Below are positions 12,467 to 38,571 of a stretch of 40,123 nt of DNA, in pieces (position 1 is the stretch's first letter; each line of letters starts with the position of its first letter). A program made the position numbers and the translations under genes. This DNA is from a virus (lineage: Duplodnaviria > Heunggongvirae > Uroviricota > Caudoviricetes), in the IMG/VR virus record IMGVR_UViG_2537562231_000015, positions 1 to 40,123 of that record; one strand, 5' to 3'. Under the pieces are notes generated by a model. That model did no database searches. It saw nothing but the letters and a program-made list of their open reading frames with translations, and was not told the DNA's origin.

Positions 12467-14248
12467 TTATATTTTAGCAAACGTTTCTAACGCCAAGCTA
12501 TCTGTTCTTTCTTTTATTAATGAATCATCCCATTTATGTTCTCTTGCTTCTGACTCACTAACAAACTCTGTAACTAATTTTAAATCAGATTTTTTATAAG
12601 ATTCTATTTTTTTGTGCAACTCATAATTCTTGCAATCTTCATTAAGTGAAAAACAGAGTGGTAGTAAATTACCAATCATACCCACGACTGACTCGTTAGT
12701 TTTGCTTTGAGATGATATGTGTTCCAAAGAAACTATATCCATTTTTAACTCTCGCGTCCCTCGTCTGATACGTTCCAACTTGTCAAAAATATAAACAATC
12801 AACTTCCTTTGCCCAGACTTTTTATTTGTATAAACAATATTCTTTGAAAATGCTTGTTTGAATATATTTTCTGAAGGCCCTTTCTGTGTAAAATAATCTA
12901 ATGCGTCATTAATAACACCCTCAACATCTCTTTTATTTAATGCCTTATTCATTCTTACTGCTAATACAGAATATTTTGCATCGATTCCAGATGGTCTTAG
13001 ACGACATACTGCATTAAACTTAAAGTGAAATGACTCTAAGGACTTCAAACATTCTATCAGCATTGATTGTGTAAGGGCTCTCGGTTTCTCTTTACGTTTT
13101 CTAAGTAATGAGAGTACAAATGGTCGAGGAATACTCACATTAAAAATCTCGAATGCTTTTAACGAGTTGTAAATTTCACGCTGATCAGGTTGAGGCCAGT
13201 CATCTGTATTTGGCGCTATTATTTTACAGTATAATTCAACATCATCATATAATTCGTTCAGAAATGATGCTGATGACAATAAAGTATTCTCATCTTGAAT
13301 CTCACGTTTAAAAGCACGATAAAGTTGATCTTCTCCAATATAATTATACTTAGAAAGCCACCACGTTCTAATATAATCAGCAATAGTGCTATTACTATCC
13401 CTAGACTCAATTTGAGTAACGATATAATCCCATTTTGTTTTTGCAATATCTACCGGATATGTTTGAGTGCAAGTTTGGAATACTTTATTCTTTATCAAAT
13501 CAATTGAACTTAAGTTTATCCCTCGAGCATTCAACACTTCAAAAATATCATAAGCATCATCCTCCTTACCTACAGATATTTTTACCAACTTCAAATAATT
13601 GGTAATCATTCTATATACAGCAGTCAAACAAAATATATAATCTTGGTTATTATAATGTTTTGCACCATCTCGCAACAATGCAGAACAGAGTGATTTCCTC
13701 CCTAGTTTTCTAGAAAGAAAAATTCCTGCATAACTTATACGTACATCCTCTTCACAAGATTCATCAACTTGATGCTCTTCGCGATCTTGATATTTTAACT
13801 TAAAATATGTTCTATCGCTATTTTTTGCTAATTTTTCAATAAATGTCTCACCATTTGAGGCTAATTGGCTTCTGCTAAATGTAGGACTCACAGTAACGAT
13901 ATATGTTTTAAATATATCATCCGCTAATGAATCTTGCCCTAAGGAACGCAATTTACGCGATATTAATGAAAGCAATATAGTAATAACTGAAAATCGTTGT
14001 TGTCCATCAACCACTTCTAATACATCATCACTATCTGCTCCAGAAAGAACAATAGTCCCTATAAAATATTCTGAACACTCCAAGTTCTGTCCATCTTCAT
14101 TCAACCTTATGTTTCTGACAATATCTTGCCATAATTCTTCAAGCTGAAGCTTTTCCCAACTAAACTCACGTTGATTACGTGGAATAACATATCTTTGTTT
14201 TACAGATAGAATGTTTTTTATATTTAGTGGTGTTGCATCAAAATTCAT
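12467..14248 (-). CDS. GmrSD-family (DUF262/ParB-like N-terminal, DUF1524-like C-terminal) putative modification-dependent nuclease
   Basis: 593-aa ORF; N-terminal YVIPRNQREFSW and VVDGQQR motifs typical of DUF262; C-terminal LEHI...GNLLPL resembles the DUF1524 His-Me finger; markedly AT-rich versus flanking phage genes. Confidence 0.65.
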   Translation of the reverse strand: MNFDATPLNIKNILSVKQRYVIPRNQREFSWEKLQLEELWQDIVRNIRLNEDGQNLECSEYFIGTIVLSGADSDDVLEVVDGQQRFSVITILLSLISRKLRSLGQDSLADDIFKTYIVTVSPTFSRSQLASNGETFIEKLAKNSDRTYFKLKYQDREEHQVDESCEEDVRISYAGIFLSRKLGRKSLCSALLRDGAKHYNNQDYIFCLTAVYRMITNYLKLVKISVGKEDDAYDIFEVLNARGINLSSIDLIKNKVFQTCTQTYPVDIAKTKWDYIVTQIESRDSNSTIADYIRTWWLSKYNYIGEDQLYRAFKREIQDENTLLSSASFLNELYDDVELYCKIIAPNTDDWPQPDQREIYNSLKAFEIFNVSIPRPFVLSLLRKRKEKPRALTQSMLIECLKSLESFHFKFNAVCRLRPSGIDAKYSVLAVRMNKALNKRDVEGVINDALDYFTQKGPSENIFKQAFSKNIVYTNKKSGQRKLIVYIFDKLERIRRGTRELKMDIVSLEHISSQSKTNESVVGMIGNLLPLCFSLNEDCKNYELHKKIESYKKSDLKLVTEFVSESEAREHKWDDSLIKERTDSLALETFAKI

Positions 14249-23072: not shown

Positions 23073-24086
23073 GTGATCTTAATCTTAAATATGAAACCTA
23101 ATTTAATTTCACGTAAACAGTACCAACACCTCAAAAATGAGTTAAATAGACTTGAGAGCTTACCATATAGACGAGGAAACAACCCAACCAACCTCAGAAT
23201 ATTAAAACTAAGAGAAGATCTAACAAACTCTCTTGTTGAATCCAGAAAAAGAAATTCAAAAAAAATTAATAGAGGAAATGTTAGCTGTATAATATGCAAG
23301 AAAAATTTCAAAAGTGCTCATGGCCTATATGAGCACTATCGCGCCAAGCATAGCAATATGATTGAACACCCTACCTCATTGTTTAATAAAGAAATAAATG
23401 GCAATACAACACTGCTTGAAAGCATTTCGCATCCTGTCACAAAAGGTATACCAATAGCAGAACACGATAAAAAAATATCATCCATTACGCTAAACAGGGA
23501 AACTAAATATTTCAATGTAGATGCGTATAATCTGGCATGCCTTTCATTAACAAAAAGTGAAGCAATAAAAATCGCTAAAGATGAATTATTATCAAGGCAG
23601 TTTCTTGGACAAAAAAACATTCTAGAACCTACTCTACCGCCAGTCATATTTATAAATCCCTCTGATACAATTAGTATACCAGTTGTCACAAAAGGCAATA
23701 CTCATCTGCAAACAATATTACAGCGTGACTCTGGCGAACAGGTTGACTTTAAAAAAAGGGTTCTAAAAAACTTCTCAAATGTATGCGCAATAACAGGTTA
23801 CAACCTCCCAGTATTGCAGGCATGTCACCTTGAACCATTTTCTCAGACCCAAAACCATAGAACCAACAATGGAATACCTCTTGAACCTACCCTTCATGCC
23901 TTGCTTGACCGAGGTCTACTAGCCATACATCCAGATAATTTAACTATTCATTTTGCTATCGATTGCTATTACAAAAATATATATGAAGGAAAAAACATCA
24001 AACCTCATAAGATTGATTTAGATAAAAATTCACTGCTAATAATTTGGAAGAACTTTCTTTTGAATGTTAAAAACAGCCAACCGTAA
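23073..24086 (+). CDS. Zinc-finger plus HNH-like nuclease domain protein (cargo gene)
   Basis: 337-aa AT-rich ORF; C2H2-like CIICKKNF..HGLYEHYRAKH near N-terminus; C-terminal CAITGYN...QACHLEPF...NGIPL...HALLDRGLLAI resembles HNH (HNH_2-like) fold. Confidence 0.55.
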   Translation: MILILNMKPNLISRKQYQHLKNELNRLESLPYRRGNNPTNLRILKLREDLTNSLVESRKRNSKKINRGNVSCIICKKNFKSAHGLYEHYRAKHSNMIEHPTSLFNKEINGNTTLLESISHPVTKGIPIAEHDKKISSITLNRETKYFNVDAYNLACLSLTKSEAIKIAKDELLSRQFLGQKNILEPTLPPVIFINPSDTISIPVVTKGNTHLQTILQRDSGEQVDFKKRVLKNFSNVCAITGYNLPVLQACHLEPFSQTQNHRTNNGIPLEPTLHALLDRGLLAIHPDNLTIHFAIDCYYKNIYEGKNIKPHKIDLDKNSLLIIWKNFLLNVKNSQP

Positions 24087-24213
24087 GTTAGCCTAAAATT
24101 GGCGACAACTTGGCGGCAGAGCATTAAAAATGCGTAAAACGGATAAACACAGGATAATAGTAACACACTGTTTTTGAACGCAAACTACTGTTTTCATTGT
24201 ATTAAAAATAGTA

Positions 24214-24258
24214 TGTAGGAATTTCGGACGCGGGTTCAACTCCCGCCAGCTCCACCAC
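24214..24258 (+). ncRNA. ssrA: 3'-terminal fragment of tmRNA gene ssrA (T-arm and acceptor 3' strand ending CCA); attachment-site core
   Basis: ATGTAGGAATTTCGGACGCGGGTTCAACTCCCGCCAGCTCCACCA matches the E. coli ssrA 3' end from memory; upstream sequence is unrelated AT-rich DNA, so only the 3' portion is present. Confidence 0.75.
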
Positions 24259-24283
24259 TTGCTCTTCCGGATACGTCCGGAGA

Positions 24284-24316
24284 AATCCTGAAAGCCCGCA
24301 TAGCACAAGCTCTGCG
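24284..24316 (+). terminator. Intrinsic terminator downstream of ssrA 3' end
   Basis: GCCCGCA...TGCGGGC stem followed by TTTTTTG. Confidence 0.6.
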
Positions 24317-24367
24317 GGCTTTTTTGTGTCTACCGTTGTCCGAGGATATCCAGCTAAATCCAGTGAT

Positions 24368-24417
24368 TATTGGTATACGTTTAGGTATACGGTAGGATGT
24401 ATACCTAAACGCGTATA
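24368..24417. repeat. Integrase arm-type repeats (GGTATACG family), attL side of the P4-like element
   Basis: ATTGGTATACGTTTAGGTATACG plus inverted GTATACCTAAACGCGTATACC; near-identical 23-mer recurs at 38313-38336. Confidence 0.45.
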
Positions 24418-25051
24418 CCAATTCATGAAGGAGCGGCCAAATTGGCAAGAACGACACGCCCCCTGACCAACACAGAAGTACTGCGCGCTAAAGCGTTAGA
24501 AAAGGATCTAACGTTGCATGATGGCGATGGTCTTTTTCTACTCGTTAAAACGAACGGTAAGAAGTTATGGCGTTTCCGTTATCAACGTCCGGCAACAAAG
24601 CAACGGACAATGATGGGGCTAGGAGCCTTCCCAGCCCTTTCACTTGCTGACGCCCGACGCTTAAGAGCGGATTACCTTTCCTTGTTAGCCAACGGAATTG
24701 ACCCGCAAATTCAAGCTGAAATTGCAGAGGAACAGCAGCAAATCGCACAGGACAGTATTTTCTCGACGGTCGCCGCTAATTGGTTTCAGCTCAAAAGCAA
24801 AAGTGTTACCCCTGATTATGCAAAAGATATTTGGCGCTCATTGGAAAAAGATGTATTCCCCGCCGTTGGTGAGATGCCCGTTCAGCAGATCAAAGCTAGA
24901 ACATTGGTCGAAGCACTTGAGCCAGTCAAAGCTCGTGGGGCATTAGAGACTGTACGTCGTCTGGTGCAACGCATTAACGAAATAATGATTTATGCGGTTA
25001 ACACTGGCTTGATTGATGCAAACCCAGCATCAGGTGGGTAATGACTCCAAC

Positions 25052-25555
25052 TTATTGATAGTGTTTTATGTTCAGATAATGCCCGATGACTTTGTCATGC
25101 AGCTCCACCGATTTTGAGAACGACAGCGACTTCCGTCCCAGCCGTGCCAGGTGCTGCCTCAGATTCAGGTTATGCCGCTCAATTCGCTGCGTATATCGCT
25201 TGCTGATTACGTGCAGCTTTCCCTTCAGGCGGGATTCATACAGCGGCCAGCCATCCGTCATCCATATCACCACGTCAAAGGGTGACAGCAGGCTCATAAG
25301 ACGCCCCAGCGTCGCCATAGTGCGTTCACCGAATACGTGCGCAACAACCGTCTTCCGGAGCCTGTCATACGCGTAAAACAGCCAGCGCTGGCGCGATTTA
25401 GCACCGACATAGCCCCACTGTTCGTCCATTTCCGCGCAGACGATGACGTCACTGCCCGGCTGTATGCGCGAGGTTACCGACTGCGGCCTGAGTTTTTTAA
25501 ATGGCGGAAAATCGTGTTGAGGCCAACGCCCATAATGCGGGCGGTTGCCCGGCAT
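25052..25555 (-). CDS. insB: IS1 InsB
   Basis: 167-aa ORF matching IS1 InsB. Confidence 0.9.
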
Positions 25556-25749
25556 CCAACGCCATTCATGGCCATATCAATGATTTTCTGGTGCGTACCG
25601 GGTTGAGAAGCGGTGTAAGTGAACTGCAGTTGCCATGTTTTACGGCAGTGAGAGCAGAGATAGCGCTGATGTCCGGCGGTGCTTTTGCCGTTACGCACCA
25701 CCCCGTCAGTAGCTGAACAGGAGGGACAGCTGATAGAAACAGAAGCCAC
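25474..25749 (-). CDS. insA: IS1 InsA
   Basis: 91-aa [26 protein letters not shown]... matching IS1 InsA. Confidence 0.9.
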
Positions 25750-26411
25750 TGGAGCACCTCAAAAACACCATCATACACTAAATCAGTAAGTTGGCAGCAT
25801 CACCCATCAGGTGTTGGCATGGCCTTCGAAAAGCCAAAAAAACAAAACATGCCGACGCTTCGACCTGAAGAATTACCAAAGCTGATGCGTTCTTTAGTCA
25901 TGTCAAATCTGTCTATCCCGACTCGCTGTCTAATTGAATGGCAACTCCTGACTCTTGTGCGCCCTTCTGAAGCCTCCAGTACTCGGTGGGAAGAAATCGA
26001 TCTTCATGCAAAGCTCTGGACGATTCCTGCCGAACGGATGAAGGCTAAACGGGAACACATAATTCCTCTATCATCTCAGGCATTAGAGATTCTTAATGTG
26101 ATGAAGCCTATTAGTGCTCATCGTGAATATGTTTTTCCGAGTCGGAATGACCCAAAGAAACCAATGAACAGTCAGACTGCAAATGCAGCTTTAAAACGTA
26201 TTGGTTTTGGCGGAAAATTAGTTGCCCATGGATTACGTTCAATAGCAAGTACAGCCATGAATGAAGCTGGATTAAATCCTGATGTTATCGAGTCTGCCTT
26301 AGCCCACAGTGATAAAAATGAAGTTAGAAAAGCATACAATCGTTCTACTTATCTCGTGCAGCGAATTGAATTGATGGATTGGTGGGGAGAATACGTTAAA
26401 AATAAAAGGGG

Positions 26412-28121
26412 TTAGCCCCCCTTTTTTCTATACAATCTCAAGCACTCGTCCAATTCAATAAGTTGTGAATTACTTAATCGTTCTTTTATATAATAAAATA
26501 CATCTTTTACTGAAGCAATTTCTCTCATCGCTCTATTGCCCATTAAAACATAGTCTTGATACATTCCAATTCTGAAGAATGAATTTGCTGCGCAAGCCAA
26601 CATAATTACTTCGGTCATTGCAGGGAGATTTAAACGATTTGGCTTAAATTTATTTTTATCATATTCGTTAAAACAAGACAAAAAGTTTCTCAATGTTTTT
26701 ATATCAGCAATACCATTTGAAACATTAGTAAATGATTTATATAAATATGGAGAGCATGAATACCAATATATATCACAAACAAGTATAGAACTTCGCTTGT
26801 TCGCAAACTCAAGCCATTCACCCTTATTTCCATTATGCATTAAGTTATATAAGAAATAAAAATGCAACAACCCATTTTTATATTCTTTTTTGGATTGATC
26901 ATAGATTATCTCAATTTTGTCCATGATAGACTGCAAATCAGTGACTTCGCCTAAATTTAACATATTTAGGTATTCACTAAACCACTTCGCTATACTTTTA
27001 GCTGTAAATCCGTCTGCATTCCAGAGCCAATATTGTGCAGATATCTCTGCAACCATTACACCCGATGTTTCCATCACCCAATTAACAGACTCTCTTTTTT
27101 GACTGTAGTTTTTACGGCAAAAATTTATTATCACATGGCGAAGAAGTCGAAGCAATCCAGAGTAACTGAAGTGAGGTTCGCCAAAAAGAACCAGACAATC
27201 ACCAACAGGATTGTAGGCTTTCGAGATCATTGCATCAAGTGGCTTAAGCTCATGGACAAAAGAAGACCTGATTTTGTATAAATTATCTAAAGCTCTACTA
27301 AGGAAGCTATAGCGGATTGGATATCTCTCTGTTTCATTGAAATAATTTTCTTCAAGATTTTTCAGTATAAAATCTTTGAACCTTTTTTGTAATCTGAATT
27401 GTTTGCCTTCAATAAGTATTGATTTAATTTTACAAACATCCTCACCAGGCATATGCTCAAATACAGACTCTAATTCACCTCTGGTTTTTTGATCGTAGTC
27501 ATCCCAATCAGACTTATAGTTATCATTTCTTTGAGACAAAGACTCCAAGGCATAGACTAACATGGAATAAGTCAGGTCAAAGTTGGTTGACAATGATTCT
27601 TTTGAATCACTAATTATTTTTAACGCTGCCATTAAAGATTTAAAGGCAGATCTATTTAGATTCACTACATCTTTAATAAAAGCAGAAAACCCAGAGACAT
27701 CATCAAATGAAACTCTTCGATTAATCTCCACTAAATATGGGGCAACTTCAAGCGCAATTTTTGAGTGATGTTTATTAAAATTTGATAATGCACATATTTT
27801 TTTAACCGATTCTTTTTCTACTCTAGCCACACAATCAAAATAGAATTCCCATAATAAAATAAATTGTTGCCTATAATCCTCATCACCAGCCCTAACTACG
27901 ACTCCAGCTTCAATTCGTTCTGGTTTTTCGGTCAGGAGAGTATAGTTTACCACATAACAGTTTATACCATCATGACTTATTTTATTTGCTTTAAAAAGAG
28001 GGGAGGTGTTTTCCACCGAGAAAGACACATCAACATTTGAATAAAAAACAAATGTGCCATCGTGTTTTTCTATTTTATCTAAATCAAAGAACACTCCAGC
28101 TGATATCTGAAACATACTCAT
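26412..28121 (-). CDS. Hypothetical 569-aa protein in the P4 int-cos variable slot (candidate anti-phage defence)
   Basis: Long AT-rich ORF with no recognised family; contains an R-x4-H motif (RSSFVH); sits where P4 carries gop/beta/cII. Confidence 0.6.
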   Translation of the reverse strand: MSMFQISAGVFFDLDKIEKHDGTFVFYSNVDVSFSVENTSPLFKANKISHDGINCYVVNYTLLTEKPERIEAGVVVRAGDEDYRQQFILLWEFYFDCVARVEKESVKKICALSNFNKHHSKIALEVAPYLVEINRRVSFDDVSGFSAFIKDVVNLNRSAFKSLMAALKIISDSKESLSTNFDLTYSMLVYALESLSQRNDNYKSDWDDYDQKTRGELESVFEHMPGEDVCKIKSILIEGKQFRLQKRFKDFILKNLEENYFNETERYPIRYSFLSRALDNLYKIRSSFVHELKPLDAMISKAYNPVGDCLVLFGEPHFSYSGLLRLLRHVIINFCRKNYSQKRESVNWVMETSGVMVAEISAQYWLWNADGFTAKSIAKWFSEYLNMLNLGEVTDLQSIMDKIEIIYDQSKKEYKNGLLHFYFLYNLMHNGNKGEWLEFANKRSSILVCDIYWYSCSPYLYKSFTNVSNGIADIKTLRNFLSCFNEYDKNKFKPNRLNLPAMTEVIMLACAANSFFRIGMYQDYVLMGNRAMREIASVKDVFYYIKERLSNSQLIELDECLRLYRKKGG

Positions 28122-28431: not shown

Positions 28432-28532
28432 CGCCCGCTTTGCGGGGCGGTTTTAATGCAGTTGCACTGACACGCTCAGACCGCGCCGGGAATGGCGCGG
28501 TCTGCAGAAAATGAGGCAGGGAAACGCATGCA

Positions 28533-28566
28533 AAGCCATGCACCTTATCGATGCATGGCTTTTTTC
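28533..28566. terminator. Hairpin with flanking A/T runs between cos and psu
   Basis: AGCCATGCA...TGCATGGCT stem followed by TTTTTT on the plus strand and preceded by an A-run (possible bidirectional terminator). Confidence 0.4.
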
Positions 28567-28595
28567 AGTAAAAACGGGCGGATTTTCGGGGAATT

Positions 28596-29168
28596 TTACA
28601 CAGACTGACGTGATGCCAGTTGCGCACTTTTACGCGAAAAAATCATGTTCTGCGCAGGGGTGAATTTTTCACGGCTGTCATCCACCGAAGCCGCGTCAGG
28701 CCTGAATCCGATGGTCGTTAAAATGTCGCTATCCTGTGCGGAATAATTAATTTTTTCACCCTTCGCAAGCCAGGACAGGAGGGCTTCACGCAGGGCATCT
28801 GTGGCACGCTGTATGGCACAGTTTCGGGCAATGGCCGTCAGATCACTGTAGCCCATCAGCTCCGGTGCCAGTGCCGCCGCCAGTGCTGTGCCGTGCTGCT
28901 GCATAAAATCATTCAGCCGGTCGCGGATGCTGATGTGCTGAACGGCTTCATGCGAACGAATATAACGACCGGCGGCCTGATTCACCTGCCATTTTCTGAC
29001 TTCGATAATATTGCGTAATTCGTCCAGGCGACTGACGTTTCTGCCTTCTCCTGACAGAAGCCGCAGATATTCCTGTTCGGCCGCAGCCAGCTCATTTTTG
29101 CGTTGCAGCCATGCTGCTTTGTTATTCTGACAGGTGTCAAAGGCCTGCTGTAAGGCTGTGCTTTCCAT
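28596..29168 (-). CDS. psu: Psu (polarity suppression / capsid decoration) protein
   Basis: 190-aa ORF, same length as P4 Psu, in the sid-delta-psu-cos arrangement. Confidence 0.85.
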   Translation of the reverse strand: MESTALQQAFDTCQNNKAAWLQRKNELAAAEQEYLRLLSGEGRNVSRLDELRNIIEVRKWQVNQAAGRYIRSHEAVQHISIRDRLNDFMQQHGTALAAALAPELMGYSDLTAIARNCAIQRATDALREALLSWLAKGEKINYSAQDSDILTTIGFRPDAASVDDSREKFTPAQNMIFSRKSAQLASRQSV

Positions 29169-29241
29169 CGTTATCTCTTTCTCATCATGCTGAAGAATAA
29201 AAATACGGTGTGTGGCGACGGCCGGTGTTAACCGGCAGCCC

Positions 29242-29742
29242 TCATTCCAGACGCAGCGAATATGATTGTGTTTTTAACCGTACTGGCGGCAGTTCCTGTT
29301 TTTCATGCAGGCGTTCTGCCAGTTCGTCCGGCGTGACCGGGCGGACAATGAAGCGGGTGATGGTCTGAAGCGTTTTAAACACCAGACCACAGCCCGGATC
29401 CGTGCACACATAAAAACGCTCGGTGACTTCCTGAGACAGACGCCGCGATGTTCTTGACAGTGCAAGGCCTTTACATCTCCGACAACAATATCCGGTAACA
29501 AGCATTCTTTTCGGGCGTTTCATACTGCCGGAGGCCGACGTCAGTGAATCGCGGTATCTCTGTTTGCCTGAAATGTATTCCATTCCTGAATCTTTACTGT
29601 CAGAGAAAAAGCTTTCACTCGCTTCAAATGTCGCAGAGCAATAAATATTCCGGCACTGTGCAATCATTATCTTGGTGCCATCGTCCATGAAATGTGCGCG
29701 ACGGGTGTGAGCAACATGTCCACACGACGGGCAGTAAATCAT
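29242..29742 (-). CDS. delta: Delta late-gene transactivator (tandem Ogr-like zinc finger)
   Basis: 166-aa ORF starting MIYCPSCGH with C-x2-C...C-x4-C pattern, a second Cys cluster further on; same length as P4 Delta. Confidence 0.85.
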   Translation of the reverse strand: MIYCPSCGHVAHTRRAHFMDDGTKIMIAQCRNIYCSATFEASESFFSDSKDSGMEYISGKQRYRDSLTSASGSMKRPKRMLVTGYCCRRCKGLALSRTSRRLSQEVTERFYVCTDPGCGLVFKTLQTITRFIVRPVTPDELAERLHEKQELPPVRLKTQSYSLRLE

Positions 29743-30473
29743 GACAGCAGTCCTCTGGCCTTAAGCTCTGCTCCCTGCTGGTCTATTTTGTCCTGCCACA
29801 CCTTGCGCTGTGCCGGTGTGCCTGCCACCTCATAATCCATGTGCGGGAGTGTTGCCGCTGACAGTCCGGTCAGCCGGAGAACCGGCTCGCCGGTGAGGCT
29901 GATTTGCATCTGTTTAATTTTCTGTTCCAGCGATGATTTCACCTGCTGCATGACAGCCTTTTCCGGTGCGACGTAGCCCTGATGGCCGGTGGTGTTGGCG
30001 AGCGGATTTTCCTGTACCAGGATACTCAGATGCATTGCCCGGACAAGCGCCTCACAGGTTTCATTCAGGGCGTGTTCCAGCTCATGCTCTGCATACAGAC
30101 TCAGAAGGTGATGATGTGCCTTCCGGTAGGCGGTGGCCGTGCTGTCACACGCCCCTTTCAGGCGTTCACGTTCAAAATTCAGCACCACGGCCAGATTGTC
30201 ATATTCCTGTACCAGCTCCCGGCGTGCCACGCGCTCAATGTGGCGCTGTTTCAGCTCGTCGCTCAGGACACCACCGGCTGCACGAAAGGCTGTGCGCCAG
30301 TCATCAGCGTCATTTCCGTCGGCCTGCGCCAGCGCATTTTTTTCCTGCTCTGCCCGTTCAATGGCCTTGACGGTCTCATCCATCAGTCGGGCGTTCTCAA
30401 GATGAGCGGCTCTGGCCTTTTCCAGTTGTGCCAGTGCGGGTTGCAGATATTCAGGGATGGTGTTGTCAGACAT
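29739..30473 (-). CDS. sid: Sid capsid size-determination protein
   Basis: ORF 29739..30491 trimmed to MSDNTIPEYLQ (244 aa, P4 Sid length); overlaps delta start. Confidence 0.85.
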   Translation of the reverse strand: MSDNTIPEYLQPALAQLEKARAAHLENARLMDETVKAIERAEQEKNALAQADGNDADDWRTAFRAAGGVLSDELKQRHIERVARRELVQEYDNLAVVLNFERERLKGACDSTATAYRKAHHHLLSLYAEHELEHALNETCEALVRAMHLSILVQENPLANTTGHQGYVAPEKAVMQQVKSSLEQKIKQMQISLTGEPVLRLTGLSAATLPHMDYEVAGTPAQRKVWQDKIDQQGAELKARGLLS

Positions 30474-30516
30474 TTTCCGGCTCCTCGTCACTTCAGATTA
30501 AGAAAATTGTGACGTA

Positions 30517-30573
30517 CACCGGACAACAACACGACGCATTGCAGATGTGCCAGCCCTGACACAGGAGACTCAT
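30517..30573. promoter_or_regulatory. Two TGT-N12-ACA dyads in the sid upstream region (candidate Delta/Ogr sites for Psid and a divergent late promoter)
   Basis: TGTgacgtacaccggACA at 30517-30534 and TGTgccagccctgacACA at 30556-30573. Confidence 0.35.
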
Positions 30574-30639
30574 CCTCAGACCGGCAAGCCAGGAAAAGGT
30601 CGCAGGAAAAACCGGCTTACTGTTTGTTTTTTTATATTT

Positions 30640-30770
30640 TACTGTTCACCTCTGTTCACCATAAGAAAAAAGATAAGTAATACAGTAAGTTAAAGGGTGA
30701 ACAATCGCAGTAATGACTGTTCACCGTCTGTTCACCACTGTTCACCCGCTCATGGACTTTTTGTGCTGTT
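30640..30770. repeat. P4-type replication origin iterons (TGTTCACC octamers)
   Basis: Six copies of TGTTCACC or its complement at 30643, 30653, 30696, 30718, 30729 and 30739. Confidence 0.6.
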
Positions 30771-31025
30771 TACTACTGTTTGTTTTTATTAATTCGCCGT
30801 GAATGAATAAGAAGAAACGATTTGTATTTCACTATAAAAATTACGAATTGCATTAAGTGGCTTTAAATGACTTTAAGTGGGAATGAACAAAAAACACACA
30901 GTCATTGTAAGGCTGCCGGAACAAATCCCCCCTGTTGCGTCTGCCAAAAATATTCACAAAATAAAGCGCTACCCGAAGCCGGACGGACTTATCCGGTGCT
31001 GTATGGACATTAACGAGGTAGCCCG

Positions 31026-31292
31026 ATGCAAGCTGTTTTTTCTTCCCCGTCTCCCGCCCCTGTGACGCCACTGATGCCGCTGCCGGACATCACGCAGGAG
31101 CGTTTTTTACGTCTGCCGGAAGTGATGCACCTGTGCGGCCTGTCACGCTCGACCATCTATGAACTCATCCGTAAGGGGGAATTTCCGCCGCAGGTGAGTC
31201 TTGGCGGTAAAAATGTGGCCTGGCTGCACTCTGAAGTCACCGCATGGATGGCCGGACGCATTGCCGGACGCAAACGGGGGTACGACGCATGA
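31026..31292 (+). CDS. vis: Vis/AlpA-family excision regulator (P4 orf88 equivalent)
   Basis: 88-aa ORF with AlpA-like HTH ([27 protein letters not shown]); GAGGTAG SD. Confidence 0.75.
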
Positions 31293-31325
31293 TGATGCCC
31301 GCTCTGCAAAAACTCCCTTTTTCTG

Positions 31326-31355
31326 GCTTGCCTTTTTCCGGCATTTGCGGATATA
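31326..31355 (+). promoter_or_regulatory. Candidate sigma70 promoter (PLE-like)
   Basis: TTGCCT, 18-bp spacer, TATAGT; upstream of the RNA-immunity region. Confidence 0.35.
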
Positions 31356-31510
31356 GTTTTTCCGCTGCCGCAAAATCGGCAGCCGGGCGTAGGAACCCGA
31401 GTTACTTCAAGGCGACATATGACGCGCCATGCGTCTTTTTTTACGTCGTTGCTTCGGCACACCTGTTTTTCTGGCTGTGGTTTTTAAACCGTAGCCTCTG
31501 TCAGATAATG

Positions 31511-31590
31511 GTGGTCCGGGCGGGGCAGCCTTCGGGCTGGCCGGTTTCCTTGAAGGCCGGTATTCCTACCCCCGTCCGGGCTACCACCCA
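31511..31590 (+). ncRNA. cI: Candidate P4-type CI immunity RNA
   Basis: Structured GC-rich segment containing CCTTGAAGG and TATTCCTAC, complementary to repeated GTAGGAAC...ACTTCAAGG elements at 31385-31412 and 31595-31640. Confidence 0.45.
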
Positions 31591-31645
31591 TGAGCGTAGG
31601 AACTCCAGTGGTAGCTGTAACTGTTACTTCAAGGAGGCTGCCATC

Positions 31646-31843
31646 ATGGCTACAACCCTTACCCCCTCACACCCTGAATTTGTCTTTGTGTTTGCGGCTG
31701 TCCGTCGCGCAGGCCGTCATCCCCGTATCTGTATGCTTCGCACCGTCGCCGGTGATGAACGCAGCGCCCGCCGTTCCCTTGTCCGTGACTATGTGCTCTC
31801 CCTTGCTGCCCGTCTGCCGGTGGTGGAGGTGTCCCGTGCGTAA
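31646..31843 (+). CDS. Small protein downstream of the immunity RNA
   Basis: 65-aa ORF with AAGGAGG SD that overlaps the downstream target repeat. Confidence 0.4.
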
Positions 31844-32100
31844 TAAAAAAGCCCCTCAGACCGTCTCAGCACGTCATGACGCCCGTGAACACCTCAGCAT
31901 TGAGGCTTACCATAAGCTCAACCGCGCCAGCGCCGTATCCCAGTTTGTTGGGGGTGATTTGATTCACCGTGAACTCTCCGGCCTGCATCAGCTCTACATT
32001 CCGCATATTTTCAGCGTAAGCGTAAACTGACCGCCGTATGTAGCCATCAGACGAGAATTGGTAACTTAGACGCCCATCTGATATAGACGGACATCTAAGT

Positions 32101-32526
32101 ATGGAATTACAGGACTGGCGAAAAGAACCTCGTAAAAACTATTCGAATGAATTCAAACTTCGTATGGTGGAACTGGCATCACAACCTGGAGCTTGTGTTG
32201 CACAGATTGCACGTGAAAATGGCGTCAATGATAATGTTATTTTCAAATGGCTCAGGCTCTGGCAGAACGAAGGGCGTGTTTCGCGGCGTCTTCCGGTAAC
32301 GACCTCTTCTGACACTGGCGTTGAATTATTACCTGTAGAAATAACGCCGGATGAGCAGAAAGAACCTGTGGCGGCCATTGCGCCGTCTTTATCCACTTCC
32401 ACTCAGACCAGAGTCAGTGCCAGTTCCTGCAAGGTGGAATTCCGTCACGGTAACATGACGCTGGAAAATCCATCGCCAGAGCTGCTCACAGTGTTGATCC
32501 GTGAACTGACCGGGAGGGGAAGATGA
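32101..32526 (+). CDS. IS66-family accessory protein (orf1/TnpA)
   Basis: 141-aa ORF, first gene of the IS66 three-gene array. Confidence 0.8.
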   Translation: MELQDWRKEPRKNYSNEFKLRMVELASQPGACVAQIARENGVNDNVIFKWLRLWQNEGRVSRRLPVTTSSDTGVELLPVEITPDEQKEPVAAIAPSLSTSTQTRVSASSCKVEFRHGNMTLENPSPELLTVLIRELTGRGR

Positions 32527-32873
32527 TCTCACTCCCATCAGGTACCCGTATCTGGCTCGTTGCCGGCGTTACCGATATGCGTAAATCCTTCAACGGACTG
32601 GGAGAACAGGTACAACATGTGCTGAATGATAATCCCTTCTCCGGTCACCTGTTTATCTTCCGTGGCCGACGGGGTGACACCGTCAAAATTCTTTGGGCTG
32701 ATGCTGATGGTCTGTGCCTGTTCACCAAACGCCTGGAGGAAGGCCAGTTTATCTGGCCTGCGGTACGTGACGGCAAGGTATCCATTACCCGCTCGCAACT
32801 GGCAATGCTCCTCGATAAGCTGGACTGGCGTCAGCCAAAAACATCCAGCCGTAACTCACTGACAATGTTGTAA
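32523..32873 (+). CDS. IS66-family Orf2 (TnpB)
   Basis: 116-aa ORF overlapping orf1 stop; conserved IS66 orf2 size. Confidence 0.85.
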   Translation: MISLPSGTRIWLVAGVTDMRKSFNGLGEQVQHVLNDNPFSGHLFIFRGRRGDTVKILWADADGLCLFTKRLEEGQFIWPAVRDGKVSITRSQLAMLLDKLDWRQPKTSSRNSLTML

Positions 32874-32903
32874 AAAACTCCTGACCGCATTATAAAAACG
32901 GTC

Positions 32904-34517
32904 ATGAGTCAGAAATACCTCATTCGCATCGCAGAGCTGGAAAGGTTGCTCTCTGAGCAGGCTGAAGCCCTCCGTCAGAAAGACCAGCAACTGAGTCTGG
33001 TTGAAGAGACGGAAGCCTTCCTGCGCTCTGCACTGACACGTGCCGAAGAAAAGATCGAAGAAGATGAACGGGAAATAGAACATCTGCGGGCTCAGATAGA
33101 AAAACTGCGCCGGATGCTGTTCGGTACCCGTTCTGAAAAACTGCGTCGTGAAGTTGAACTGGCTGAGGCTCTGCTGAAACAACGTGAACAGGACAGCGAT
33201 CGTTACAGTGGGCGGGAAGACGATCCTCAGGTTCCCCGCCAGTTGCGACAGTCGCGCCATCGTCGTCCGTTACCGGCACACCTTCCCCGTGAAATACACC
33301 GCCTGGAGCCAGAAGAAAGCTGTTGCCCGGAGTGTGGCGGTGAGCTGGATTATCTGGGGGAAGTCAGCGCTGAACAGCTGGAACTGGTGAGCAGTGCCCT
33401 GAAAGTGATCCGCACAGAACGGGTAAAAAAAGCCTGTACAAAATGTGACTGTATTGTTGAAGCACCGGCGCCGTCCCGCCCGATAGAGCGTGGTATCGCG
33501 GGCCCCGGATTACTTGCCCGCGTGTTAACGGGAAAATACTGCGAACATCTGCCACTGTATCGTCAGAGTGAAATCTTTGCCCGCCAGGGTGTCGAACTGA
33601 GCCGGGCCTTACTCTCCAACTGGGTTGACGCGTGCTGCCAGTTAATGACACCGGTGAATGATGCCCTGTACCGTTATGTAATGAACACCCGCAAGGTTCA
33701 CACTGATGACACACCGGTAAAGGTACTGGCACCGGGTCAGAAAAAGGCGAAAACAGGGCGTATCTGGACGTATGTCCGGGATGATCGCAATGTGGGTTCG
33801 TCATCTCCTCCAGCGGTCTGGTTCGCGTACTCGCCGAACCGGCAGGGGAAACACCCGGAGCAACACCTCCGCCCCTTCCGGGGTATCCTGCAGGCGGATG
33901 CGTTCACAGGTTACGACAGGTTGTTCAGTGCAGAACGTGAAGGTGGTGCACTGACAGAAGTTGCGTGCTGGGCCCATGCCCGGCGAAAAATCCACGATGT
34001 ATACATCAGCAGCAAAAGTGCGACGGCAGAAGAAGCCCTGAAGCGAATCAGTGAACTGTACGCCATCGAGGATGAAATACGGGGATTACCGGAGTCAGAG
34101 CGTCTTGCCGTCAGGCAGCAGCGAAGCAAAGTGTTACTGACGTCGCTGCATGAATGGATGGTGGAGAAGAATGGTACGCTGTCGAAAAAATCCAGACTGG
34201 GCGAAGCGTTCAGCTATGTACTGAATCAGTGGGATGCCCTCTGTTATTACAGTGATGACGGTCTGGCGGAGGCGGATAATAATGCTGCGGAAAGAGCGCT
34301 TCGTGCAGTCTGTCTCGGAAAGAAAAACTTTATGTTCTTTGGCAGCGATCACGGCGGCGAGCGTGGAGCACTGTTGTACGGGCTGATCGGCACCTGCCGT
34401 CTGAACGGTATCGATCCGGAAGCGTATCTGCGCCATATCCTGAGCGTACTGCCGGAATGGCCTTCCAACCGAGTTGACGAACTCCTGCCATGGAACGTAG
34501 TACTCACCAATAAATAA
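32904..34517 (+). CDS. IS66-family transposase (TnpC)
   Basis: 537-aa ORF with N-terminal coiled coil, zinc-finger-like CPECGG and C-terminal DDE region. Confidence 0.9.
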   Translation: MSQKYLIRIAELERLLSEQAEALRQKDQQLSLVEETEAFLRSALTRAEEKIEEDEREIEHLRAQIEKLRRMLFGTRSEKLRREVELAEALLKQREQDSDRYSGREDDPQVPRQLRQSRHRRPLPAHLPREIHRLEPEESCCPECGGELDYLGEVSAEQLELVSSALKVIRTERVKKACTKCDCIVEAPAPSRPIERGIAGPGLLARVLTGKYCEHLPLYRQSEIFARQGVELSRALLSNWVDACCQLMTPVNDALYRYVMNTRKVHTDDTPVKVLAPGQKKAKTGRIWTYVRDDRNVGSSSPPAVWFAYSPNRQGKHPEQHLRPFRGILQADAFTGYDRLFSAEREGGALTEVACWAHARRKIHDVYISSKSATAEEALKRISELYAIEDEIRGLPESERLAVRQQRSKVLLTSLHEWMVEKNGTLSKKSRLGEAFSYVLNQWDALCYYSDDGLAEADNNAAERALRAVCLGKKNFMFFGSDHGGERGALLYGLIGTCRLNGIDPEAYLRHILSVLPEWPSNRVDELLPWNVVLTNK

Positions 34518-34655
34518 GCGTCAATACGGTGCTCCGTTGACGCTTACTTTTCAGCTACCTGAATGAAGATATTGATTTTGTGCTGAATGAGCTGAAAGCC
34601 AAAGGCCTGTGCCGCGATTTTCTCGCCCAGCAGAAAGACCGGGGAGACAGGACGC

Positions 34656-35111
34656 ATGTTTGATTTTCCCCAGCCCGGTGAGATTTACCGTTCTGCCGGT
34701 TTTCCCGATGTGGCCGTGGTCGGCATTCTGGAAGACGGTATTCCGTGGGAAATGCCGTACCGCTGCCCGGACATTGTCTGGAACCCGTACCGCCGTAAAT
34801 TCAGTATCCTTGTGCGTATCCTCGCTGACGGGCGCACCACAGACATCCCGCTGGGGCGTTTTCTGCGGGAATTTACCTGTGACCGTCCTGACCTGTTCAA
34901 ACGCAGCCCCGTAAACCGGCATGCGGTACTGAAAGAAATGGCCGGAGACCCGGAATTACAGAAATGGCGGGAGAAATATCTGGATATTTACCCGCAGGAC
35001 ACTGTTCCGGTCAGCCGGGCGGCACCGGTGGCGCGGGAATGGCGGGAAATTCCCCGCACGGAGCCTGACCCGGAAATCACCCCGGATAACAGTTACCGCA
35101 ATTATCTGTAA
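34656..35111 (+). CDS. P4 orf151-like protein
   Basis: 151-aa ORF, same length and position as P4 orf151. Confidence 0.55.
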   Translation: MFDFPQPGEIYRSAGFPDVAVVGILEDGIPWEMPYRCPDIVWNPYRRKFSILVRILADGRTTDIPLGRFLREFTCDRPDLFKRSPVNRHAVLKEMAGDPELQKWREKYLDIYPQDTVPVSRAAPVAREWREIPRTEPDPEITPDNSYRNYL

Positions 35112-35246
35112 TTAAAAAACGACACCCGAAAAATTAAATGTGCGTATTCGCGCAGGGATACGCACGTCTTCAGGAGACGCAGATATGCCTTATCAGTTAA
35201 TGCAACCGGCACGGAATGCAGTCATCTGTCACAGGGAGGAAAGCAA

Positions 35247-35567
35247 ATGAAAACACCCTTACCGCCCGTCTTACGCGCTGCCCTTTACCGTCGCGCTGTC
35301 GCCTGTGCCTGGCTGACCGTGTGCGAACGTCAGCACCGCTACCCGCATCTCACCCTTGAGTCACTGGAGGCGGCCATCGCCGCTGAGCTGGAAGGCTTTT
35401 ATCTGCGCCAGCACGGTGAGGAAAAAGGGCGTCAGATAGCCTGTGCCCTGCTGGAAGATTTAATGGAATCCGGCCCCCTGAAGGCCGCGCCGTCGCTGTC
35501 CTTTCTCGGGCTGGTTGTGATGGATGAACTCTGTGCCCGTCACATAAAAGCGCCGGTACTGCACTGA
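35247..35567 (+). CDS. P4 orf106-like protein
   Basis: 106-aa ORF directly upstream of alpha. Confidence 0.55.
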
Positions 35568-35581
35568 AGGAGAACAACACC

Positions 35582-37915: not shown

Positions 37916-37921
37916 CCCACC

Positions 37922-37947
37922 TGACCGGCATCTGCCGGTCTTTTTTT
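37922..37947 (+). terminator. Intrinsic terminator after alpha
   Basis: GACCGGCA-tct-GCCGGTC stem followed by TTTTTTT. Confidence 0.7.
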
Positions 37948-37954
37948 ATCCCGA

Positions 37955-38270
37955 CCTCCCCCGAAGGTGAACAATCCACTGTTCACCCTTCACCGTATAT
38001 TCACCCGTTATCACACTGAAATTAAAAGAGAAAAATGAAAGGTGAACAGTGTGAACAATCAAATCAAAAAAAACTTTTTTCTCCCTGTGTGATTTCAGTA
38101 CGGGGGATTAATCACCAGTAGGAGTCACACCGGCAGAATGCCGGAGGTGAAGAATCGAATGTTCACCCTTCACCCATTATTCACCACCTATCATACTGAA
38201 ATAAAAGGAGAAAAAAGAAAGGTGAACAGTGTGAACAGTTCTTTCGAAAAAAAATTTTTTTCCTGTACGA
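37955..38270. repeat. crr-like cis replication region: two ~125-bp direct repeats with TGTTCACC/GGTGAACA iterons
   Basis: Units at about 37955-38080 and 38140-38268 align along their length, separated by about 60 bp. Confidence 0.65.
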
Positions 38271-38312: not shown

Positions 38313-38336
38313 AACTTACAGCCATTGGTATACGAT
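38313..38336. repeat. Integrase arm-type repeat, attR side of the P4-like element
   Basis: ATTGGTATACGATTAGGTATACG, one mismatch from the copy at 24368-24390. Confidence 0.45.
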
Positions 38337-38547
38337 TAGGTATACGCACAAAAACTAAATTAAACAAAATCATTAAAAATCAAAGCAATAAAGCATTTAT
38401 TCAAACTCCGCCAGCCAATCATGATTGGACGGTGTAAGGACAACACCAACAAAAACAGGAAGTTAGAAGTCTCAGCAAAACACCGACCAGACGGTGAGGA
38501 GACATAAAAGGATACGCAAAGGAGCCGCGGCTCCTGGTAACATGAAA

Positions 38548-38571
38548 GCCCACAGATGTGGGCTTTTTCGT
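38548..38571 (+). terminator. Putative intrinsic terminator
   Basis: AGCCCACA-gat-GTGGGCT stem followed by TTTTT. Confidence 0.45.

Follow-up and report, generated by a model that had tools for sequence, protein, structure and literature searches.

At both ends of a P4-like satellite there stand two almost identical 23-bp repeats, and they raise the question of whether such repeats are the limits of the element, sites for its integrase, or something else. A sequence-only reading of the DNA analysed here (a stretch of 40,123 nucleotides, the whole of the IMG/VR virus record IMGVR_UViG_2537562231_000015, hereafter "the window") had proposed that they are candidate integrase arm sites which, together with a degenerate ssrA-like core at the far end, delimit the satellite. 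We find that, as judged from sequence comparison, the repeats are very probably the arm sites at which the satellite's own tyrosine integrase, of the P4 family, would bind, and that they belong to a P4-type attachment site of standard form that was split when the element integrated at a well-known hot spot.

Six copies of one short unit occur only at the two ends of the element

The first 23-mer, ATTGGTATACGTTTAGGTATACG, occupies positions 24369-24391 and the second, ATTGGTATACGATTAGGTATACG, positions 38324-38346. Both match the sequences quoted earlier exactly, and the two agree with each other at 22 of 23 positions; the starts had been given as 24368 instead of 24369 and as 38313 instead of 38324, the latter 11 nt off. 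When both strands of the 40-kb window are searched with the pattern ATTGGTATACGNTTAGGTATACG, allowing up to three mismatches, only these two sites are found, and the chance expectation from 100 dinucleotide-preserving shuffles is 0.00. The earlier reading had thus correctly seen near-identical repeats at both ends of the satellite.

The repeating unit is the decamer TWGGTATACG at a spacing of 12 bp. The 40 kb contain five exact copies and one with a single mismatch, all at the element's two ends: on the + strand copies begin at 24370, 24382, 38325 and 38337, and on the - strand they lie at 24398-24407 (the mismatched copy) and 24412-24421. Two direct and two inverted units form a palindrome at 24369-24422, and the span originally noted, 24368-24417, is therefore most of this palindrome. 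The units are arranged as follows.

24369..24392, + strand: two tandem 12-bp units, ATTGGTATACGT and TTAGGTATACGG; P' arm, int side, repeat 1
24398..24422, - strand: two inverted units, TAGGTATACA (1 mismatch) and TTGGTATACG, completing the palindrome
38324..38347, + strand: two tandem 12-bp units, ATTGGTATACGA and TTAGGTATACGC; P arm, crr side, repeat 2

The int-side tandem units begin 111 nt past the CCA (24257) of an ssrA fragment, and the inverted units stop 19 nt short of the TTG start codon of int and 6 nt short of its AAGGAG ribosome-binding site. At the other end the crr-side tandem units stand about 52 nt ahead of the core motif. With these distances from the junctions the repeats are inside the element and are not themselves its limits.

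The repeats belong to a P4 satellite with a different integration cassette

Starting from the int side, the satellite carries int (split by an IS1), a gene for a 569-aa cargo protein, psu, delta, sid, Vis/AlpA, the CI-RNA immunity region, an IS66-family element, the alpha primase-helicase gene and crr. The gene set of a P4 satellite (psu, delta, sid, alpha, Vis/AlpA, epsilon/ash, CI RNA and int) is present in P4 order, and Pfam recognizes Psu, Ogr_Delta, Phage_AlpA, Phage_ASH and primase-helicase domains among the products. The features that matter below are these.

24442..25036, + strand: int 5' part, codons 1-198, with Arm-DNA-bind_3 and Phage_int_M domains (Pfam)
25037..25804, - strand: IS1, 768 bp, inside int (blastn against the IS-free copy; transposase Pfam hit)
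25805..26415, + strand: int 3' part, with the catalytic Phage_integrase domain (Pfam)
31026..31292, + strand: Vis/AlpA-family excisionase gene (Pfam Phage_AlpA; BLASTP against P4 Vis)
32016..34547, + strand: IS66-family element, 2,532 bp, in the immunity/epsilon region (comparison with the IS-free copy)
37961..38260, + strand: P4 crr (cis replication region), the last P4-homologous segment (identity to P4 record NC_001609)

From psu to crr (28432-38260) the window is 98% identical to P4 positions 11624-4291. This homology ends at P4 position 4291, which corresponds to window position 38260, and the swapped attachment region begins beyond it. Since the P4 backbone ends at crr, both sets of arm sites, the core and int lie together in a swapped, non-P4 module. 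The integrase is only 36% identical to P4 Int, and a 98% P4 backbone with a 36% integrase therefore makes the element a P4 whose integration cassette is a different one. This agrees with the literature, in which P4-like satellites are described as frequently swapping their integrases (PMC8628076).

The intact integrase WP_000124719 of E. coli ATCC 8739, to whose gene the int 5' part in the window is 99.9% identical, has an Arm-DNA-bind_3 domain (residues 8-91), a Phage_int_M domain and a Phage_integrase domain by Pfam. The window integrase has the same three domains, with IS1 parting the arm-binding and central domains from the catalytic one; the gene adjacent to the repeats is accordingly that of a tyrosine integrase with an N-terminal arm-DNA-binding domain. 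IS1 is flanked by a 9-bp target duplication, CATCAGGTG (25028-25036 and 25805-25813), and the IS66-family element by one of 8 bp, TTTTCAGC (32008-32015 and 34548-34555). The Vis product is identical to P4 Vis (ORF88) at 87 of 88 residues (99%, BLASTP).

Some other contents of the satellite may be recorded here. Rfam reports c4-a1b1, isrK and C4 antisense RNA hits at 31351-31591 (+ strand), the counterpart of the P4 immunity (CI RNA) locus, and these overlap an Ash-family ORF at 31244-31843. The 569-aa cargo gene (26412-28121, - strand) occupies the int-cos variable region and is also found in ATCC 8739; Pfam gives no hit for its product, and PADLOC matches it only weakly, to an ApeA-like model (E = 7e-6).

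With two IS elements and the crr iteron region (37961-38260) close by, the repeats might be chance matches, IS or transposon ends, or P4 replication iterons that have nothing to do with the ends of the element. We consider such an origin extremely improbable. Zero chance matches are expected for the repeat pattern; the ends and target duplications of IS1 and of the IS66-family element lie elsewhere; P4 iterons are of the TGTTCACC type, and P4 homology ends at 38260, short of the repeats; and the repeats are also present in the ATCC 8739 copy, which has no IS.

Comparison with the empty site places the junctions at the ssrA 3' end

The attachment region contains the following features.

24213..24257, + strand: ssrA 3' fragment, 45 nt, ending in CCA; prophage attR and satellite attL core
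24243..24250, + strand: CCGCCAGC, left copy of the 8-bp shared segment and putative crossover (junction alignment)
24291..24328, + strand: intrinsic terminator hairpin supplied by the element in place of the native ssrA one (inverted repeat plus T run)
38400..38417, + strand: attR core, TTCAAACT-CCGCCAGC-CA, followed from 38418 by the native flank ATCATGATTGG

The 45-nt ssrA fragment is identical to the ssrA 3' end of ATCC 8739 and of strain 720632. ARAGORN and Rfam detect no complete tmRNA gene in the window, because a P2/186-like prophage separates the real ssrA, which is outside the window, from the satellite. At the far end the motif TTCAAACTCCGCCAGCC, which had been read as an ssrA-like core at 38399-38415, lies at 38400-38416; it does resemble ssrA, with 13 of 17 positions identical to the ssrA 3' segment TTCAACTCCCGCCAGCT in an ungapped comparison, and it runs straight into the native ssrA downstream flank ATCATGATTGG.

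The earlier reading had suggested that an empty ssrA site in related strains would define the exact junctions. With a chimeric query of ssrA plus the right flank, an empty ssrA-ypjA site was found in 1385 of 5426 complete E. coli genomes. In the empty site the ssrA end reads ...CCGCCAGCTCCACCA|ATCATGATTGG (in strain 720632, ...GGTTCAACTCCCGCCAGCTCCACCA|ATCATGATTGGACGG), and the right end of the satellite in the window reads ...TTCAAACTCCGCCAGC-----CAATCATGATTGG, or, read further, ...TTCAAACTCCGCCAGC-----CAATCATGATTGGACGG. The ssrA-like motif is therefore the true right junction, and native chromosome begins at 38418. The segment CCGCCAGC, whose right copy is at 38408-38415, is the only stretch that recurs without change in attL, attR and the empty site, and the core is thus shared by the ssrA 3' end and both junctions. 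As at other ssrA islands, attL has a complete, element-supplied 3' end (...CCGCCAGCTCCACCA), and attR retains a short and defective one (CCGCCAGC-----CA).

Since the junctions lie in CCGCCAGC at 24243-24250 and 38408-38415, the element is 14,165 bp long, measured between the two CCGCCAGC copies. Without IS1 and its 9-bp duplication and the IS66-family element and its 8-bp duplication it would be 10,848 bp. The IS-free copy in ATCC 8739, which lies between intact ssrA and ypjA and has the arm repeats, is 10,883 bp, and P4 is 11,624 bp. The sizes first proposed, about 14.2 kb and about 10.9 kb without the IS elements, agree with these values, and the approximate boundary was right; only the use of the repeats as limits has to be given up, since the junctions are in CCGCCAGC. 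A boundary past the second IS66, which had been named as the outcome that would overturn the proposal, is contradicted by the end of the element at the ssrA-like motif.

The description of the far-end core as degenerate fits its right half and not its left. The right half is a displaced chromosomal ssrA remnant that has lost five nucleotides, TCCAC (CGCCAGC-----CA). The left half, TTCAAACT, is an imperfect copy of the chromosomal TTCAACTC. The form TTCARACT ahead of CCGCCAGC is also found in CP4-57 of K-12 and in related elements of Kluyvera, Citrobacter, Enterobacter and others, whatever the host; this constancy across hosts and elements shows that the left half is the element's own and part of its attachment site, and rules out that this half arose by mutational decay from a chromosomal copy. 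The CGCCAGC-----CA variant has been tabulated for Salmonella LT2 Stm27X, E. coli RS218 and EDL933 OI-108, and a remnant lacking 1 nt for CP4-57, CP4So and others (PMC10107115 Table 1, citing Williams 2003 and Wang 2009).

Excision of CP4-57 deletes T357 from ssrA and inactivates the tmRNA (PMC10107115). Strand exchange there must therefore occur 5' of T357, the base that follows CCGCCAGC, which is consistent with an exchange in that segment, and from this literature and our junction comparison we infer that the crossover in the present element is within CCGCCAGC as well. We also considered a crossover in CCACCA, with an element-borne GCCAGC-CCACCA far end; this is ruled out by the loss of T357 from CP4-57 hosts and by the junction in E. 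coli XYEH3783, in which a complete TCCACCA adjoins this satellite end. The survey of far-end variants in E. coli covered a sample of 60 of the 296 genomes that have this end, and homology stops at 38415-38416 in about half of the sample. ECC-1470 has the same satellite end plus a complete TCCACCA and then another island, S1-INA-02-B has the same end followed by CCACCA (without the T), and the CA-only remnant is present in the window and in ATCC 8739; all compared E. coli versions of the junction keep TTCAAACT and CCGCCAGC. The remnant lacking 5 nt also occurs at islands with unrelated integrases (EDL933 OI-108, RS218). The three remnant states, and the fact that the 5-nt state is common to islands with unrelated integrases, raise the possibility that elements might integrate into, and so repair, an ssrA gene already damaged by an earlier excision.

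The replacement terminator consists of an inverted repeat (24291-24304/24309-24322) and a following T run, and is conserved in all related loci; the native ssrA terminator is displaced to 38545-38570.

The layout is that of the P4 attachment site

The P4 attP and its arm sequence repeats were reportedly described by Pierson and Kahn in 1987, and the P4 record NC_001609 annotates 12-bp "attP arm sequence repeats". Read in the orientation of int, the P4 site opens with a tandem pair of units, which 53 nt separate from a core of 20 bp that ends in CCA; 112 nt beyond the core comes a second tandem pair, and after 15 nt more a single inverted unit that overlaps the int ATG. The window has the same order, orientation and spacing of 12-bp units (about 52 and 111 nt against 53 and 112 nt in P4), with its six TWGGTATACG units on both sides of the core and outside it; in both elements the core ends in the CCA of a tRNA-like gene and int adjoins an inverted unit. 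The two differ in target (the tRNA-Leu gene leuX in P4, ssrA here), in the unit itself (TTGGGGGCAT in P4, TWGGTATACG here), in the number of inverted units (one in P4, two here) and in the identity between core and target (20 bp in P4, the 15-nt CCGCCAGCTCCACCA here).

Among P4-integrase islands at ssrA, CP4-57 of E. coli K-12 is reportedly treated in Kirby 1994, Williams 2003 and Wang 2009; such islands are also the subject of Onodera 2022 (PMC10107115). CP4-57 and the other islands share with our element the target, the segment CCGCCAGC, an imperfect, element-borne left half (TTCAGACT in CP4-57, TTCAAACT here), a replacement terminator, a mutated far-end ssrA remnant, a tandem pair of arm-like units with inverted ones ahead of intA, and a further tandem pair some 60 nt short of the far-end core. 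CP4-57 differs in its units (TAGGCCCA / TRGGACCA), in its integrase (IntA is about 57-61% identical), in being a 22-kb cryptic island and no P4 satellite, and in its remnant, which lacks 1 nt (T357) where that of the window lacks 5 nt.

More distant systems are instructive as well. Lambda Int is a heterobivalent tyrosine integrase whose N-terminal domain binds arm repeats flanking the crossover (P1, P2, P'1-P'3). In the present element, as in lambda, the probable arm sites differ from the core and lie to either side of the crossover, but its integrase belongs to an unrelated subfamily with another N-terminal Pfam fold family, and the sequences, numbers and spacings of the sites differ. In KplE1, the integrase sites of intS overlap the promoter region and give negative autoregulation, which is said to hold for P4 also (PMC2951348). 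As in the KplE1 IntS/TorI system the integrase gene of our element adjoins its attachment site, and autoregulation would be a shared property; the element, the integrase and the site sequences of KplE1 are different ones.

The units covary with the N-terminal domain of the integrase

A scan of one genome per species gave 79 loci with relatives of the integrase, 69 of them with a usable N-terminus, and nearly all of these loci adjoin the ssrA 3' end. Of the 69 related Enterobacterales loci, at least 55 show, shortly before int, a pair of direct units accompanied by an inverted one. Counted from the CCA, this pair lies 112 nt away in 28 loci and 122-123 nt away in 18. One helical turn separates the two distance classes (seen at loci L004-L082 in the 260 nt upstream of int), and this suggests that phasing is constrained.

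Depending on the clade, the unit is GGTATACG, GGTACACG or GGCCTACG; that of CP4-57 is TAGGCCCA and that of P4 TGGGGGCA. The central bases vary among related loci (TATA, TACA, CCTA) and the layout is kept. When P4, the window, CP4-57 and two other clades are aligned, the units fall in the same columns and only their central bases differ. In all six loci whose far end lies within the fetched DNA (L007, L039, L040, L058, L068 and L074), the far-end pair is of the same variant as the int-proximal pair and is followed by about 70 nt and then TTCAGAYTCCGCCAGC; in ATCC 8739, K-12 and P4, too, both pairs are of one variant.

The integrases of three unit classes compare with the query as follows (median identity).

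GGTATAC class: residues 1-95, 89.5%; rest of the protein, 86.7%
GGTACAC class: residues 1-95, 68.4%; rest of the protein, 84.5%
GGCCTAC class: residues 1-95, 63.2%; rest of the protein, 77.7%

We counted as class-separating those positions at which the GGTATAC and GGTACAC classes have residue sets without overlap. There are 13 among the 95 N-terminal positions against 2 among the 303 elsewhere (Fisher p = 2.8e-7), and the repeats thus vary with the cognate integrase. Such N-terminal-specific divergence is the pattern expected of sites that are read by the arm-binding domain, and it suggests that specificity resides in the four central bases of the unit, which would have diverged together with that domain. 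Motif class and integrase clade are phylogenetically confounded, and the contrast between domains reduces this confounding and does not remove it. The P4 layout, the neighbouring Arm-DNA-bind_3 gene, the agreement of the units from end to end and their covariation with one domain all argue for the original proposal that the repeats are integrase arm sites.

The same data bear on two other explanations of the repeats. The first is that they are sites for the Vis/AlpA excisionase, that is, for a recombination directionality factor, rather than for the integrase. The element does carry a Vis/AlpA gene (31026-31292), P4 Int and Vis both down-regulate int (PMC2951348), and a place just before int would suit a Vis-type regulator. 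Vis, however, is 99% identical to P4 Vis, yet the unit is wholly different (TTGGTATACG against TTGGGGGCAT in P4) and follows the integrase N-terminal domain; the repeats moreover flank the core on both sides, as is typical of Int arm sites, and a better Vis candidate exists in the block GTCCGAGG...AAATCC, which is kept in P4, in the window element and in CP4-57. We regard the excisionase explanation as very unlikely.

Between core and arm units, at 24266-24288 and 24339-24361, there are four TCC(G)-N7-8-TCC units with a phasing of about 10 nt. Directly to the left of the int-proximal units stands the block GTCCGAGG..TCC..AAATCC, which is kept in P4, CP4-57 and relatives despite their differing arm units. 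These TCC blocks are candidate binding sites for the Vis/AlpA excisionase.

The second explanation is that the int-proximal palindrome (24369-24422) is mainly structural, an int leader RNA hairpin or a DNA cruciform that would control int expression or transcript stability, with the far-end copy incidental. A strong hairpin is indeed predicted (-31.4 kcal/mol, z = -7.7, in the window; -28.5 in locus L039; -24.8 in P4), and the complementarity of the palindrome survives the change of motif. The far-end pair, on the other hand, consists of direct units alone and shows no significant fold (z = -1.9), but some 10 kb away it has the same clade-specific variant in every element checked. The sites are also better conserved than the stem, since elements of the GGTACAC class have a degenerate inner inverted unit and P4 has one inverted unit in all, and no U-run follows the hairpin. 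A mainly structural role is therefore unlikely, though somewhat less so than the excisionase reading; a dual role, in which the palindrome would serve both as arm sites and as an RNA or cruciform structure, is possible in view of the predicted fold.

How the integrase would use these sites

If the repeats are arm sites, the integrase would be heterobivalent, with its N-terminal domain on the arm sites and its other domains on the core. The circular form of the element would hold both arm sets and the core in a single attP of about 300 bp, in the order crr, a tandem pair of units, a gap of about 52 nt, the core (TTCAAACT CCGCCAGC TCCACCA), 111 nt with the replacement terminator, a second tandem pair, two inverted units and int. 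Integration at the ssrA 3' end, by strand exchange within CCGCCAGC, would split this attP and leave two units at the right end (38324-38347) and four beside int (24369-24422). By analogy with lambda and P4, Arm-DNA-bind_3 would grip the TWGGTATACG units and the central and catalytic domains the core, and the bridging of arm and core DNA would build the recombination complex.

Occupied int-proximal units would in addition repress transcription of int. P4 Int represses its own promoter by binding DNA directly near the int transcription start (PMC2951348, citing Piazzolla 2006). A scan with a simple consensus detected no sigma-70 promoter around the int-proximal units, and the autoregulation step therefore draws no support from the present sequence. 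Binding by the integrase, the exact points of cleavage and autoregulation are the parts of this model that we infer.

The copy in the window has an int gene cut by IS1 after codon 198 and a far-end remnant without TCCAC, and it is in this respect not equipped for recombination. With a split int and a remnant 5 nt short, the element is probably immobile on its own; its sites would probably be relics, and the satellite would need an integrase supplied in trans.

Stacked islands behind one ssrA core

A P2/186-like prophage occupies positions 1-24212 of the window; its identity with Klebsiella phage Kp4849-2 is 95.8%, and homology to that phage ends exactly at 24212. The prophage encodes a P2-family capsid protein, terminase, portal, GPA replication protein, CI repressor and integrase. 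A potential helper prophage and a satellite thus stand in tandem at one ssrA site. Two cargo genes of the prophage may be mentioned: one at 12467-14248 (- strand), beside portal, for a GmrSD-family (PADLOC HEC-06 / Orf5-like) type IV restriction protein, and one at 23073-24086 (+ strand), between int and the attachment site, for an HNH-domain protein, in whose place TOK-001 has GapS1.

Because of the arrangement in ATCC 8739 and the 45-nt block of identity, the satellite evidently came first, and the P2-like phage would later have inserted itself into ssrA, so that the original 3' end now lies farther downstream together with the satellite. E. coli TOK-001 (L087) has the same tandem arrangement and an identical integrase protein, and its satellite is truncated by ISKpn26. 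In ECC-1470 (L086, 560-660) the same satellite, with GGTATACG units, is followed by a P4-family integrase island with int-proximal repeats of the TGGGACCC type, and thus neighbours on one ssrA core carry different arm units. This single case, ECC-1470, suggests that islands stacked on one ssrA core carry distinct arm sites.

Our results leave the understanding of site-specific recombination unchanged. Full-text literature searches for the decamer sequences returned no relevant paper, and neither the TWGGTATACG unit of this integrase clade nor the covariation series appears in the literature searched; their novelty is modest. What the analysis provides is base-level boundaries for a P4-type satellite that stands second in an ssrA tandem, behind a P2-like helper prophage, and that is essentially P4 with a swapped integration cassette. 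It also provides an annotation rule for such islands: at the far end, two 12-bp-spaced units about 50 nt ahead of a CCGCCAGC remnant, and on the int side the same units about 111 or 122 nt past the ssrA CCA. The pairs of arm-unit and N-terminal variants are predictions for integrase specificity.

We tentatively propose, as a possibility that we rate a little below an even one, that the P4-family integrases of ssrA form orthogonal pairs of N-terminal domain and arm site, which would limit interference among stacked islands. The covariation data and the one tandem pair in ECC-1470 point to such orthogonality with the same degree of reserve. The pairs may differ mainly in the central four bases of the unit (TATA, TACA, CCTA, GGGC and others) and in about a dozen N-terminal residues. 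Since ssrA stacks islands behind one core, orthogonality would confine each integrase to the ends of its own element. If this is true, neighbouring islands would neither be cross-excised nor be fused, and the arm units and N-terminal domains would offer a readable specificity code for integrase engineering.
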